From NCBI GenBank assembly GCA_964427175.1, contig CAYRTP010000002.1, positions 12,084 through 72,356 on the forward strand: DNA of 60,273 nucleotides. Reading direction: 5' to 3'. Position numbers and translations under genes: made by a program. Under the pieces are notes generated by a model that had not been told where the DNA came from, did not search any database, and worked only from the letters and a program-made list of their open reading frames with translations. How positions within the stretch are numbered: position 1 is the stretch's first letter; each line of letters begins with the position of its first letter. This document shows positions 33,571 through 60,273 of this stretch, piece after piece. Source of the stretch: an uncultured Clostridium sp. Its GTDB lineage: Bacteria > Bacillota > Clostridia > Oscillospirales > CAG-272.

Positions 33571-33673
33571 CAAGGTTCTTGAAGATTCTTAAGGAACTTC
33601 TTGCAAGAAGTTCCTTAAGCGGGTCCAGGGCAGAGCCCTGGCGGGGGTCAGGGGCAGAGCCCCACGCTCTCCC
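33571..33673 (+). repeat. REP family 2, copy c (three hairpins)
   Basis: cttaaggaacttcttgcaagaagttccttaag, ccagggcagagccctgg, ggggcagagcccc. Confidence 0.85.
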
Positions 33674-56895: not shown

Positions 56896-58041
56896 ATGAA
56901 CAAGTTCATGCTCAACGAGACCTCCTACCACGGCGCGGGCGCGATTGCCGCCATCACCGACGAGATCAAGGCCAGAGGCTTCAAGAAGGCCTTTGTCGCT
57001 ACCGACCCCGACCTGATCAAGTTCGGCGTGACCGCCAAGGTCACCGACCTGCTGGATGCCGCTGACATTCCCTACGAGGTCTTCTCGGACATCAAGCCCA
57101 ACCCCACCATTGAGAACGTCCAGAACGGCGTAGAGGCCTTCAAGGCCGCCGATGCGGATTGCATCGTGGCCATTGGCGGTGGCTCCTCCATGGATACCGC
57201 CAAGGCCATCGGCATCATCATCACCAACCCCGAGTACGCCGACGTTCGCTCCCTGGAGGGCGTGGCTCCCACCAAGAACCCCTGCGTGCCCATCATTGCC
57301 GTCCCCACCACCGCCGGCACTGCCGCCGAGGTGACCATCAATTACGTCATCACCGACGTGGAGAAGAAGCGGAAGTTCGTCTGCGTGGACGCTCATGATA
57401 TTCCCGTAGTGGCCGTGGTGGATCCCGACATGATGGCCACCATGCCCGCAGGCCTGACCGCCGCGACGGGTATGGACGCGCTGACTCACGCCATCGAGGG
57501 CTACATCACCAAGGGTGCCTGGGCTCTGTCGGATATGTTCCACATCGAGGCCATCCGCATCATCGCCGCCTCCCTGCGGGGCGCGGTGAACAACACCGCC
57601 GAGGGCCGTGAGGGCATGGCTCTGGGCCAGTACGTGGCCGGTATGGGCTTCTCCAACGTAGGCTTGGGCGTGGACCACTCCATGGCACACACCTTGTCCG
57701 CTTACTACGATATGCCCCACGGTAAGGCCTGCGCTACCCTGCTCCCCGCCGTCATGGCCTACAACGCCGAGGCTACGGGTGAGAAGTACCGCGAGATCGC
57801 CCGCGCCATGGGTGTCAAGGGTGTGGATGACATGACCCAGGACGAGTACCGCGCCGCCGCCGTGGAGGCTGTCCGTCAGCTGGCCGAGGACGTGGGCATT
57901 GTCACCTCCCTCAAGGGTGTGGCCCGCGAGGAGGATATCCATCAGATGTCTGTGGATGCCTACAACGACGCTTGCCGTCCCGGTAACCCCCGCGAGACCT
58001 CGGTGGAGGATATTGAGGCGATCTATCGGAGCTTGATGTGA
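56896..58041 (+). CDS. fucO: Lactaldehyde reductase (iron-containing alcohol dehydrogenase, FucO-like)
   Basis: Close colinear resemblance to recalled E. coli FucO: ADVRSLEG, PTTAGTAAEVTINYVITD, RKFVCVD.HDIP, DALTHAIEGYIT.GAWAL, GQYVAGMGFSNVGLG. Confidence 0.88.
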   Translation: MNKFMLNETSYHGAGAIAAITDEIKARGFKKAFVATDPDLIKFGVTAKVTDLLDAADIPYEVFSDIKPNPTIENVQNGVEAFKAADADCIVAIGGGSSMDTAKAIGIIITNPEYADVRSLEGVAPTKNPCVPIIAVPTTAGTAAEVTINYVITDVEKKRKFVCVDAHDIPVVAVVDPDMMATMPAGLTAATGMDALTHAIEGYITKGAWALSDMFHIEAIRIIAASLRGAVNNTAEGREGMALGQYVAGMGFSNVGLGVDHSMAHTLSAYYDMPHGKACATLLPAVMAYNAEATGEKYREIARAMGVKGVDDMTQDEYRAAAVEAVRQLAEDVGIVTSLKGVAREEDIHQMSVDAYNDACRPGNPRETSVEDIEAIYRSLM

Positions 58042-58305: not shown

Positions 58306-58344
58306 CGCAAAAAGCCGCCCAACGGATTTCGGTCCGTTGGGCGG
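58306..58344 (-). terminator. Terminator ending the minus-strand BMC/ParA operon
   Basis: ccgcccaacgga/tccgttgggcgg 12-bp stem, cttttt on the minus strand (T-run on the plus side too). Confidence 0.85.
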
Positions 58345-58361
58345 TGATTATTTTTGATTCT

Positions 58362-58745
58362 TCAGAGCAAATAATGCGGCATCTTCTGCCCCACCTGTAC
58401 GTGCTCCACCTTGGCGTTCTCCTTGTGGCCCACAACGGCCTCCACCGTCTCGGGGGCTATGTTGGCCATGACCGCGGTTTCAACCGCAGTTTCCACTGCG
58501 GTAACGGGCTCCTTGGCGGGATCGGCCACCACTTCGGCGGGCTTTTCTGCGACCGTTTCGGCTACAGCCTCGGCAGGAGCCTCGGCCTTGGGGGCGGCGG
58601 GCTTCTTCTTGGCAGGAGCTCGTTTCTTAGGGGCGGGCTTGACCTCTGCGGGGGTATCGGCCGCGGCCTCCGCTTTGGCCTCTACGGCTTCGGGAGCGGC
58701 CGCCTTGGCTACGCGATTCTGAATGCTGTCTTTACCGATGGGCAT
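58362..58745 (-). CDS. Intrinsically disordered A/E/P/K/V-rich protein, translationally coupled partner of the ParA-like ATPase (McdB/ParG-like candidate)
   Basis: RBS aaggagg, 9 nt, ATG 58745; overlaps the ParA stop by 14 nt. MPIGKDSIQNRVAK then low-complexity PAPKKRAPAKKKPAAPKAEAPAEAVAE. Confidence 0.7.
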   Translation of the reverse strand: MPIGKDSIQNRVAKAAAPEAVEAKAEAAADTPAEVKPAPKKRAPAKKKPAAPKAEAPAEAVAETVAEKPAEVVADPAKEPVTAVETAVETAVMANIAPETVEAVVGHKENAKVEHVQVGQKMPHYLL

Positions 58746-59529
58746 ATTCCATAACCTCCTTGGATAGTGTCAGATATTCCTGGGCCGCACGGCTGGTCTT
58801 CTTGTAGGCCATGACGGGCAGACTGTTTTCCTGGGACCACTCAATGGCCGAGTCGATGCGGATGTAGGTGTCGAACAAACGGACGTTGTCCAGGGACCCC
58901 AGTACGTCGATGGCCTGCTTGAACTGGTTTTTGCGCTCGTTGGCCTTGGTCACCACCACGCCGAGGATCTTCAGCTCGGGTGCCAGCCGCTGGAGCTTTT
59001 CGTAGAACTCAAAGAGGTTGGCCAAACCGAACAGGCCCCAGGGGGAGGCCTCCACGGGGATCAGCACGAAGTCCGAGGCGCACATGATGTTCATGACCCA
59101 GCAACCCAGGGTGGGGGGCGCGTCGATCAGAATGTAGTCATACTCCCCCGACTCGCGGATCTTGGACAGGCCCTGCTTGAGGACGAATTCTCTCTGCCAC
59201 ATGGTGAACAGGTCCACCTCAATGCCGCTCATGAGGATGGAGGAGGGAATGAGGTCCAGCCCCTCGTAGGCGGTGTGGCGGATGAAGGGGGTCAGTTCCT
59301 TCTGTCCCTTCATGGCGGTGTAGAGATTCTCCCCGCTCTCGTTGAAGCCCAGGGCGGTCTCCTCGTCAAAGAAGGACAGGGTGAGGTTCATCTGCATATC
59401 GCCGTCGATGAGCAATACGCGCTTGCCCTCGGTGACCATGCTGTACCCCACGTTGGCGCAGGTGGTGGACTTGCCGCTTCCGCCCTTGTTGTTGGCGAAG
59501 CAGATGATCTTGGTTTTCGTCTGACTCAT
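58732..59529 (-). CDS. ParA/MinD-family (deviant Walker A) ATPase
   Basis: IICFANNKGGSGKSTT, LLIDGDMQ, ILIDAPP; RBS agggag. Confidence 0.85.
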   Translation of the reverse strand: MSQTKTKIICFANNKGGSGKSTTCANVGYSMVTEGKRVLLIDGDMQMNLTLSFFDEETALGFNESGENLYTAMKGQKELTPFIRHTAYEGLDLIPSSILMSGIEVDLFTMWQREFVLKQGLSKIRESGEYDYILIDAPPTLGCWVMNIMCASDFVLIPVEASPWGLFGLANLFEFYEKLQRLAPELKILGVVVTKANERKNQFKQAIDVLGSLDNVRLFDTYIRIDSAIEWSQENSLPVMAYKKTSRAAQEYLTLSKEVMEYAHR

Positions 59530-59545
59530 AATAGAACTCCCTTTA

Positions 59546-59616
59546 TTAAAGTTCTTGGGGTCAAGCCCTTCTTTCAAGAAGGGCTTGCGGGGGTCAGGGG
59601 CGGAGCCCCTCGTTCT
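59546..59616 (+). repeat. REP family 2, copy b
   Basis: Nearly identical first hairpin to copy a: aaagttcttggggtc aagcccttctttcaagaagggctt gcggg ggtcaggggcggagcccc. Confidence 0.85.
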
Positions 59617-60072
59617 TCACACAGGCAATGCGTCGGGCGCGTCGCCGGGCTCGCGGAGGTAGTCAATGATGTCGGTCAGCCCCTCACCGGTGTAGGAGCT
59701 ACAGGGGAAAATGCGGGTGCAACCGCAGAGCTTCAGCCAGCGTTCGGCCTGCTCCACGTTGGCCGCGGGGCGGTCGATGCCCGAAATAATGCCAACGACC
59801 TCCCGATTGACCAGGCAGGTACAGCAGGGCGGGAACACGCAAAAGGGCTCGTCCGCGCCGATGACCAGACCGACGATGTCGGCCTCGTAGGCGTACAGAG
59901 CCAGCGCGGCTCCCAACTTGGCTACCTCGGTGTACTCACCGGGGGTGTCGATGATGGTGTTGTGGTAGTTGATGTATTGGGTCTTGCAGTAGTGGAGCTG
60001 TTCACCCCGCAACGCCTGGGTCAGCGTGGTCTTGCCCGCCGCTACACGGCCCATAAGAATCAATTTCTTCAT
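59617..60072 (-). CDS. eutP: EutP/PduV family microcompartment-associated GTPase
   Basis: MKKLILMGRVAAGKTTLTQAL…IDTPGEY; typical size. No SD; a REP copy abuts the start. Confidence 0.8.
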   Translation of the reverse strand: MKKLILMGRVAAGKTTLTQALRGEQLHYCKTQYINYHNTIIDTPGEYTEVAKLGAALALYAYEADIVGLVIGADEPFCVFPPCCTCLVNREVVGIISGIDRPAANVEQAERWLKLCGCTRIFPCSSYTGEGLTDIIDYLREPGDAPDALPV

Positions 60073-60081
60073 AAGACATTT

Positions 60082-60160
60082 TTAAAAAGTTTTGGGGATT
60101 CATAAGGGACTTTTCCTAAAAGTCCCTTATGCGGGGGACAGGGGCAGAGCCCCTCGTTTT
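60082..60160 (+). repeat. REP family 2, copy g
   Basis: aaagttttggggattc + cataagggacttttcctaaaagtcccttatg + cgggggacaggggcagagcccc. Confidence 0.85.
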
Positions 60161-60162
60161 CT

Positions 60163-60273
60163 TTACGTTCTGGTCTTCTCGCAGACCGTGAACTTGAGGG
60201 TATCGCGGAAATAATCACCGATGGCGGTGAAGGCGGAATCCACCTCGGAGACCCGACCCGTGATGATGAGGGT
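60163..60273 (-). CDS. BMC shell protein, EutS/PduU type (C-terminal 36 codons; continues beyond window)
   Basis: TLIITGRVSEVDSAFTAIGDYFRDTLKFTVCEKTRT parallels the recalled E. coli EutS tail [36 protein letters not shown]. Confidence 0.75.
   Translation of the reverse strand, partial: TLIITGRVSEVDSAFTAIGDYFRDTLKFTVCEKTRT

Follow-up and report, generated by a model that had tools for sequence, protein, structure and literature searches.

A ParA-type ATPase and a disordered partner protein in a Clostridial glycyl-radical-enzyme microcompartment operon: a candidate McdAB-like positioning system

The last two genes of a bacterial microcompartment (BMC) operon, at the 3' end of a 60,273-nt stretch of DNA from an uncultured Clostridium sp. 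(the window), encode a complete ParA/MinD-family ATPase of 265 residues (58732-59529, minus strand) and a 127-residue protein (58362-58745, minus strand) that is predicted to be disordered and has conserved short motifs at both ends. Together they probably constitute a ParA-driven positioning and segregation system for a catabolic microcompartment of the GRM5 type, in which the ATPase would be an McdA-like motor and the small protein its McdB-like partner, or adaptor. An earlier note on this DNA had proposed an McdAB-like system as a candidate; the BMC context, the disorder and basic peptide of the partner and the lack of a ParB gene or parS site nearby support it as such.

The two genes are co-directional, last in the operon and, judged from their sequences, translationally coupled. 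The ATPase gene starts at an ATG codon, the 281-residue open reading frame (ORF) from a TTG codon being merely the longest frame. The ATG codon of the partner, preceded by the Shine-Dalgarno sequence AAGGAGG, lies 14 nt upstream of the parA stop codon. Upstream on the same strand are eutP/pduV (59617-60072), encoding a small GTPase-like BMC protein of 151 residues (PF10662, 1e-45; TIGR02528, 5e-37), and the 3' part of a gene for a shell protein of the EutS/PduU type (permuted BMC-H; 60162-60273), which runs off the window end. Its partial product matches the Pfam BMC domain, and the full protein of 122 residues on a contig with the same ParA (L002) matches NF012012 EutS at 9e-29. The order shell gene, eutP, parA and partner, the overlap and the strong ribosome-binding site of the partner, all claimed in the earlier note, are thus borne out by the coordinates and by Pfam and NCBIfam matches. 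The partner ORF is complete in 94 related loci and overlaps parA by the same 14 nt in 93 of them, so that the arrangement is not due to chance.

The operon upstream of the window end is known from other contigs and genomes. ParA proteins 100% identical to that of the window occur on six metagenome contigs, the longest of which, L002, reaches 6.7 kb upstream and carries, in order, genes for a PduS-like flavoprotein, a PduT-type tandem shell protein, an 843-residue glycyl radical enzyme (GRE), a radical-SAM activase, the EutS/PduU-type shell protein, EutP, ParA and the partner. The GRE has PFL-like and Gly_radical domains and matches TIGR01774 (PFL2/glycerol-dehydratase family) with 794 bits, above the curated cut-off; it falls under the family cut-off for the choline lyase CutC and is therefore not CutC. 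A genome scan found 127 relatives, of which 80, with 66-95% identity, were kept; they come from metagenome-assembled genomes of gut and rumen Clostridia (Oscillospiraceae, Christensenellaceae and 'Eubacteriales'). In all of the roughly 100 related loci that include upstream sequence, from 80 species-level genomes, the order GRE, activase, PduU, EutP, ParA and partner is preserved on one strand while the downstream genes vary, and there, as on the contigs with identical ParA, ParA and partner are always the last two genes of the operon.

A metagenome scan seeded with PduL was used to reach the 5' end of the operon. The complete order, on one strand, is AckA, class II aldolase, aldehyde dehydrogenase (AldDH), zinc-dependent alcohol dehydrogenase (Zn-ADH), three to four BMC-H proteins, PduL, BMC-P, PduS, BMC-T, GRE, activase, PduU, EutP, ParA and partner. 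Locus L099 has AckA, Aldolase_II (1e-46), Aldedh and Zn-ADH upstream of the shell genes, and the same aldolase end is found in L094, L098, L136, L140, L143 and L144. In the literature, the GRM5 fucose/rhamnose type of glycyl-radical-enzyme microcompartment (GRM) has an aldolase together with a GRE. The gene content of the locus matches this description and, on that ground, the locus is a GRM operon with GRM5 gene content, in line with the earlier suggestion of a fucose/rhamnose or 1,2-propanediol-type BMC.

The ATPase matches Pfam AAA_31 (1e-51) and CbiA (9e-19). The P-loop NNKGGSGKST, noted earlier as a deviant Walker A motif, contains both the signature lysine (Lys15) and the Walker lysine (Lys20), and is strictly invariant, both lysines included, in 82 distinct ParA homologues. 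The Walker A' (LLIDGDMQ) and Walker B (ILIDAPP) motifs are near-invariant in the same set, and their aspartates are invariant except D43, which is kept in at least 70% of the homologues. A cluster of basic residues (K195, R199, K200, K204, K243, K244 and R247) is invariant in all 82, and at its C-terminus the protein has an ordinary ParA helix. Among solved structures the nearest are a ParA (8RAY, 6e-32), Helicobacter pylori Soj (7e-26) and Thermus thermophilus Soj, the best ParA/Soj matches including 8RAY, 6IUB and 1WCV. R199 aligns with the Arg in the DSRAN segment of the 8RAY ParA, which we take to be R189 of Bacillus subtilis Soj. K204 aligns with a residue of H. pylori Soj that, counted from the alignment, is the native Lys199, presumably a DNA-binding lysine. 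Because of the invariant basic cluster and these two alignments, and with three other Soj lysines unmatched, nucleoid binding by the window ParA is plausible.

The BMC-linked ParAs share 59% identity or more with that of the window. The nearest ParA among 72,556 plasmid records reaches 40%; a ParB/Srx-type gene comes next, and its surroundings contain no BMC genes. By these comparisons the BMC-linked ParAs appear to be a separate clade in which ParB has been exchanged for the disordered partner. The record with the 40%-identical ParA (L177, NZ_CP154629.1, 2.63 Mb) is filed as an Acetoanaerobium noterae plasmid, yet it is chromosome-sized.

The partner has no significant match in Pfam or NCBIfam, and a search of the Protein Data Bank (PDB) with its N-terminal 30 residues and with the family profile gave no relative, the sole match being compositional (E 2.4). 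Its composition (A 25%, V 13%, E 13%, K 12% and P 11%) agrees with the earlier description of an A/E/P/K/V-rich protein. An alignment of 88 distinct sequences, 63-159 residues long, shows conservation at the two ends. The N-terminal peptide MPIGKDSIQNRVAK (58704-58745, minus strand), with a predicted helix, is the proposed ParA-binding and ATPase-stimulating motif; its consensus is M-[PS]-[ILV]-G-K-x-S-I-x-[KR]-[RV]-[VA]-[AK]-K, typically MPIGKxSIxKRVAK. M1, G4 and I8 are invariant and K5 is present in 87 of the 88, while position 10 is K or R in 73, R11 is found in 62 and K14 in 71; the short basic N-terminal peptide noticed earlier is therefore a conserved feature. Residues 15-96 (58458-58703, minus strand) form an A/P/K/E/V-rich linker with the lysine-rich patch KPAPKKRAPAKKKPAAPK. 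Across the family the linker is hypervariable in length and sequence and rich in A, K, T, P, E and V; A, K, T, P and E make up 70% of it, and aromatic residues less than 1%. A lysine-rich patch with a net charge of +5 to +8 per 20 residues occurs in 86 of 88 homologues, and the window partner has a single short basic patch and a net charge of -2.

The C-terminal module (58365-58457, minus strand), the proposed BMC-binding end, consists of the helix APETVEAVVGH followed by KVEHVQVGQKMPHYLL with the tail [ML]Px[YFHW]L[LM]. The helix belongs to a third motif, TAVLxNVxPETVxAVxGH, which is duplicated as NIAPELVAT in some lineages and lost in the most distant ones. The protein ends in KVxIGxx[ML]Px[YFHW]L[LM], with P-5 and L-2 invariant; at position -3, 57 sequences have Y, 17 have F, 11 have H and 3 have W. 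The AlphaFold2 (AF2) model of the partner, built on a 71-sequence alignment, has a mean predicted local distance difference test score (pLDDT) of 59.5 and a predicted template modeling score of 0.15; this check, called for earlier, predicts that the low-complexity protein is intrinsically disordered. Helices are predicted at residues 6-14, 84-92 and 98-105 only, and the model has no strands and no DNA-binding fold. The pLDDT of the linker is 42-67, and the last 20 residues are the most confident part (76-79).

The partner family is large. At E <= 1e-3 the 90% database yields 1320 members, all named just 'hypothetical protein'; at 50% identity there are at least 400 clusters (248 at E <= 1e-10), without annotation. 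A second subfamily (P0096-P0120) has the longer head MPIGKNAIKRVxNNGYSxVKxxAPDMENS and an extra motif, KKSMExEPxLxPVKT; its three members with locus context (L084, L086 and L140) are all in GRM5-type loci. Partners of 115, 127 and 135 residues adjoin identical ParA proteins. In L006 (2771-3178) a ParA 100% identical to that of the window is accompanied by a 135-residue partner from another clade, that of L016, a sign that the adaptor gene has recombined or turns over very fast. Since identical ParAs carry differing partners, one of them from another clade, the partner gene evolves or recombines much faster than parA. In L027 (10785-11156, CP091718.1) the partner ORF is frameshifted, with the N-terminal peptide and the MPDYLL end in separate frames, owing to an assembly error or because the gene is a pseudogene.

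The C-terminal tail is also found on proteins of other families. When all collected loci were scanned for ORFs with a terminal Px[YFWH]L[LMIV], four proteins came up apart from partners and one evident false positive, all with helix-turn-helix (HTH) domains: two of the ArsR type (HTH_20/HTH_5) and two of the AraC type (HTH_18). Each gene directly follows PduL, and in L147 and L149, the two loci of sufficient length, PduL is the last gene of a BMC locus of the aldolase type that lacks both ParA and GRE. The ArsR-type winged HTH proteins, of about 130 residues, are encoded by the last gene of GRE-less aldolase-type loci (L147:10603-11019, L156:2195-2590, L171:10001-10399 and L173:10001-10405) and have an acidic E/K/P/V linker and the conserved end EVYRVVDSDIVRPDPVKIELPIYLL. 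The tail is carried by 42 of 44 clusters, mostly as PVK[IV]ELP[IFY][YW]LL, and of the two clusters without it one is a truncated fragment. The AraC-type regulators (L149:10782-11687, L133:1455-2234, L175:10001-10792 and L176:10001-10894), also in last-gene position, end in [LM]P[DN]YLL in 39 of 39 clusters (LPDYLL in 37), behind a hypervariable basic S/T/P/K linker. On long contigs the ArsR- or AraC-type gene is last, on the same strand, after genes for aldolase, an HbpS-like protein, Zn-ADH, four to five BMC-H proteins, BMC-P, PduS, BMC-T, DeoR, AckA, AldDH and PduL. One such locus has an iron-dependent alcohol dehydrogenase after PduL, and these loci already hold the DeoR regulator.

Three partner clusters (P0160, P0145 and P0152) have an FtsK-gamma winged-helix domain inside the linker (Pfam, 1e-13 to 4e-18) and retain both the ParA peptide and the C-terminal module. 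P0160 (L168:6641-7555) directly follows ParA in a locus with the order GRE, activase, PduU, EutP and ParA on a 30-kb contig. Two further fusions of the C-terminal module, P0200 (L169, with a zinc ribbon) and P0258 (L170, with an IF2_N-like head), lack the ParA peptide and were set aside, as they lie on single contigs of 732 and 836 nt that may be chimeric. A role of the tail as a beta-clamp-binding motif or a degron was rejected as well, because there is no QLxLF consensus and the three families that carry the tail have the BMC locus alone in common.

Since these three unrelated families share just their position in BMC operons, the most economical reading of the sequences is that the tail binds a BMC component, either the shell or a shell-associated protein. 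The presence of the tail on HTH proteins therefore supports a cargo-binding role for the tail of the partner. It is also possible, as a more tentative proposal, that the [ML]Px[YFW]LL tail and the disordered linker form a portable docking peptide of Clostridial metabolosomes that is joined to several heads engaging DNA or the nucleoid. These heads may be the ParA-activating peptide, that peptide plus FtsK-gamma, the ArsR-type HTH and the AraC-type HTH, and in every case the encoding gene comes last in a homologous BMC operon. If true, metabolosomes would routinely be coupled to the chromosome, either actively via ParA or passively via DNA-binding tethers. Alternatively, shells may sequester their own transcription factors through the tail, as an assembly-sensing feedback. 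Tail proteins are not universal, since two fully typed GRE-less loci with GRM5 gene order, L135 (12798-15431) and L160, end after BMC-T, with no ParA within the sequence covered and no tail-bearing protein; in L135 the BMC-T gene is followed by an OmpR-type two-component system.

In the mechanism proposed for the pair, ATP-bound ParA dimers would bind the nucleoid via K195, R199, K200 and K204 together with K243, K244 and R247. The partner would dock on the outside of the BMC via its C-terminal module, the APETV helix and the MPxYLL tail, and its N-terminal helix, with Lys5 and the basic residues at 10, 11 and 14, would bind the ParA dimer and stimulate ATP hydrolysis. The resulting local clearance of ParA would let BMCs climb the ParA gradient by a Brownian ratchet, so that they keep apart on the nucleoid and pass to both daughter cells. 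The lysine-rich linker would serve as a flexible spacer and may add weak DNA binding or the ability to form condensates.

This working model is close to what has been established for the alpha-McdAB system of Halothiobacillus neapolitanus, where, as in the window, a BMC operon includes the gene for a ParA with the signature lysine and, after it, that for a small partner. Both alpha-McdB and, by prediction, the window partner are almost wholly disordered, and both have a basic N-terminal peptide of about 20 residues with a key lysine (K7 in McdB, K5 here) and a short C-terminal aromatic motif, with cargo binding as its role, here a proposed one. H. neapolitanus McdB needs its first 20 residues to bind McdA, and these suffice for binding; K7 is critical, and modeling places the N-terminal helix at the McdA dimer interface. 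The C-terminal motif of alpha- and beta-McdB, with its invariant Trp, is described as needed for carboxysome binding, with Tyr able to substitute in part. The window pair fits the alpha-McdAB-like model in all features that can be examined by sequence. It differs in its presumed cargo, here a catabolic metabolosome of the GRM5 type in a Gram-positive anaerobe, and in that the partner has the extra APETV helix and a fixed [ML]Px[YFHW]L[LM] end, mostly with Tyr, Phe or His at -3 and without an invariant Trp; the likeness of the partner to McdB is one of shared features.

A group of McdB-like proteins outside carboxysomes has been described before. Section 2.9 and Fig. 8f of MacCready 2021 place McdA- and McdB-like genes in or beside four types of non-carboxysome BMC operon, with Tyr replacing Trp within the last four residues, and Fig. 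4 of Basalla 2024 names GRM and propanediol-utilization (PDU) BMCs among the types with McdB-like proteins. The McdB-like proteins of GRM and PDU loci are presented there with no Trp, and with Tyr or Phe, among the last 4-5 residues. The partner fails the strict carboxysomal criterion of an invariant C-terminal Trp and fits this non-carboxysome Tyr/Phe group. Compared with its published description, rather than with the sequences of the published examples, the window partner is very probably a member of the predicted GRM/PDU McdB-like group, and its locus class, GRM, is one of those named. As presented in these parts of the two papers, the group consists of a handful of examples with no family definition, and the N-terminal consensus, the APETV motif, the FtsK-gamma variants and the HTH proteins with the tail are not mentioned in them. 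Literature searches on FtsK or winged-helix proteins and microcompartments, and on PduV, the nucleoid and ParA, likewise gave no description of FtsK-gamma or HTH-tail proteins. The definition of the adaptor family, the FtsK-gamma variants and the tail shared with HTH proteins thus appear to be new. With regard to positioning in Firmicutes metabolosomes, the earlier statement that no characterized system was known still stands, while the idea itself is less novel than was then thought, as MacCready 2021 and Basalla 2024 had already published it as a sequence-based prediction.

Several points weigh against a positioning role. The ParA systems of metabolosomes are predictions, and the literature gives no experimental evidence for any of them. 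The window ParA is nearer to chromosomal Soj/ParA proteins (6e-32 to 7e-26) than to the McdA-like protein of Cyanothece (6NON/6NOO, 1e-13), the sole McdA-like structures in the comparison. Of the four H. pylori Soj lysines that we take to be DNA-binding, one aligns with a basic residue of the window ParA. The invariant C-terminal Trp of McdB is missing, and His occupies position -3 in 11 of 88 tails. The aldolase end of the operon is known from relatives whose ParA is 60-72% identical, the window strain being covered up to PduS. Finally, the product of the neighboring gene, EutP/PduV, is itself a proposed mover of Pdu BMCs, through a link to filament-associated movement. EutP/PduV is a Ras-like small NTPase with a fold different from that of ParA and occurs in most PDU, ethanolamine-utilization (EUT) and GRM loci, whether or not they have a ParA; the Salmonella protein is now called an acetate kinase in NCBIfam.

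Among the alternatives, the partner could be mainly a passive tether between the BMC and DNA, like PhaF and PhaM, or its tail could recruit DNA-binding proteins to the shell for regulatory feedback, with ParA acting just as a modulator and not as the source of the distribution. PhaF and PhaM combine a cargo-binding part with a Lys/Ala/Pro-rich, histone-H1-like DNA-binding segment, share polyhydroxyalkanoate granules between daughter cells and act without ParA. The nearly ubiquitous lysine-rich patch of the linker is similarly histone-H1-like, and Pfam HC2 is weakly matched by 13 of 71 members, although these matches are compositional and under the Pfam cut-off. Also in favor are the three partner clusters with FtsK-gamma, one of them beside ParA in a GRE-type locus, and the sister BMC loci without ParA that end in an ArsR- or AraC-type HTH gene with the same tail. 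However, the window partner itself has a net negative charge and just one short basic patch; DNA binding by the linker is a conjecture, and in contrast to the PhaF/PhaM tethers a ParA and a putative ParA-binding peptide are always present. The full ParA with its invariant catalytic residues and the strictly conserved N-terminal peptide point to an active ATPase cycle, and this alternative, as tether or as feedback, is unlikely.

It is also quite improbable that the pair serves the BMC in another way, as an ATPase for assembly, shell remodeling or maturation, as MinD/Mrp-family NTPases do for metal centers, or together with EutP. The pair is strictly tied to the GRE-containing version of the locus, where it comes right after the activase, PduU and EutP, and the GRE-less loci of GRM5 order, L135 and L160, are without ParA. 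The superfamily also holds Fe-S carrier and maturation ATPases, some of which are weak NCBIfam matches to the window ParA. The best NCBIfam and PDB matches, however, are to partition ParA/Soj proteins, and the combination of basic N-terminal peptide, disorder and aromatic tail is the architecture of a cargo adaptor of the ParA family. An Mrp/NBP35-like role as an Fe-S carrier was rejected because the sequence has no CxxC motif.

A third alternative, an ordinary DNA-partition module of a plasmid, the chromosome or an integrated element that merely adjoins the BMC operon, draws on the similarity of the ATPase to Soj/ParA, on the pairing of the nearest ParA of the plasmid collection with ParB and on the FtsK-gamma DNA-binding domain of a few partners, but it is very unlikely because the BMC synteny is invariant in about 100 loci whose downstream genes vary, no ParB, ribbon-helix-helix (RHH) or HTH fold was found in the partner, no parS consensus with up to three mismatches occurs in the 60-kb window, and the partner has no match among the 72,556 plasmid records. 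In sequence and structure the ATPase does match ParA(Soj)-ParB(Spo0J) systems best, and there, too, the partner activates ParA through an N-terminal Lys/Arg peptide, the role proposed for the window peptide. The start of B. subtilis Spo0J, presumably MAKGLGKGINALF, resembles PIGKDSIQKRV of the window partner. Unlike a partition protein, however, the partner has no ParB/Srx, HTH or RHH domain, and its cargo is most readily seen as a protein organelle. The window is ordinary chromosome with housekeeping and sporulation genes. The adjoining genes include those for SpoIVB, ABC transporters, shikimate kinase, phosphoglucomutase, rubrerythrin and an Rrf2 regulator, and in the roughly 25 kb annotated next to the locus there is no ParB, and fucO is the sole gene of fucose/rhamnose catabolism. 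The earlier note had named a ParB-HTH gene or parS site nearby, or an upstream locus other than a BMC operon, as grounds for abandoning the positioning model; no ParB or HTH gene was found in the annotated flank and no parS site in the window, and the pair follows a BMC operon in about 100 loci.

Only carboxysomes have a characterized positioning system. Other BMC operons are listed by the field as future work, and a 2024 review and a 2025 preprint describe the positioning systems of non-carboxysome BMCs as yet to be studied. The placement and inheritance of catabolic microcompartments is thus an open question that can be addressed with a large and well-delimited adaptor family. The locus supplies two short motifs that can be mutated: the N-terminal ParA peptide with its near-invariant Lys and the C-terminal tail of six residues, with its invariant Pro and Leu and usually an aromatic residue (His in some) at -3. 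Because GRM5-type BMCs process fucose and rhamnose in gut anaerobes, the inheritance of these organelles bears on carbohydrate metabolism in the gut. A transferable docking tail with its cognate ParA, if real, could keep engineered BMCs from polar aggregation in production strains. The pair in the window is of specialist interest, as a system of an ordinary kind, and the portable tail is a lead that can be tested.

Downstream of the partner, a bidirectional intrinsic terminator (58314-58345, both strands) is common to the operon and the convergent fucO gene. Its stem of 12-14 pairs, nine of them G-C, is flanked by T-runs on both strands, in agreement with the strong terminator reported previously at this place. 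The fucO gene (56896-58041, plus strand; NF007911, 1e-195) encodes lactaldehyde reductase and gives metabolic context from outside the operon; it is found downstream in the closest relatives only.

The spacers of the operon contain a repeated element. A GC-rich box of 29 nt, AACGAGGGGCTCYGCCCCTGWCCCCCGCA, occurs in three minus-strand copies, two in these spacers (59586-59614 and 60130-60158) and one elsewhere in the window (33640-33668), each just past a stop codon. In the eutP-parA spacer (59530-59616, minus strand) a perfect hairpin of 12 bp (59562-59587) and the Shine-Dalgarno sequence of parA come after the box, and the pduU-eutP spacer (60101-60158, minus strand) has the same box and a hairpin (60101-60131), the two perfect hairpins being of 12-14 bp. 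No copies of the box are expected by chance in the window, and it is present in close relatives too. It looks like a repetitive extragenic palindromic (REP)-like intergenic element or an element that processes or stabilizes the mRNA.

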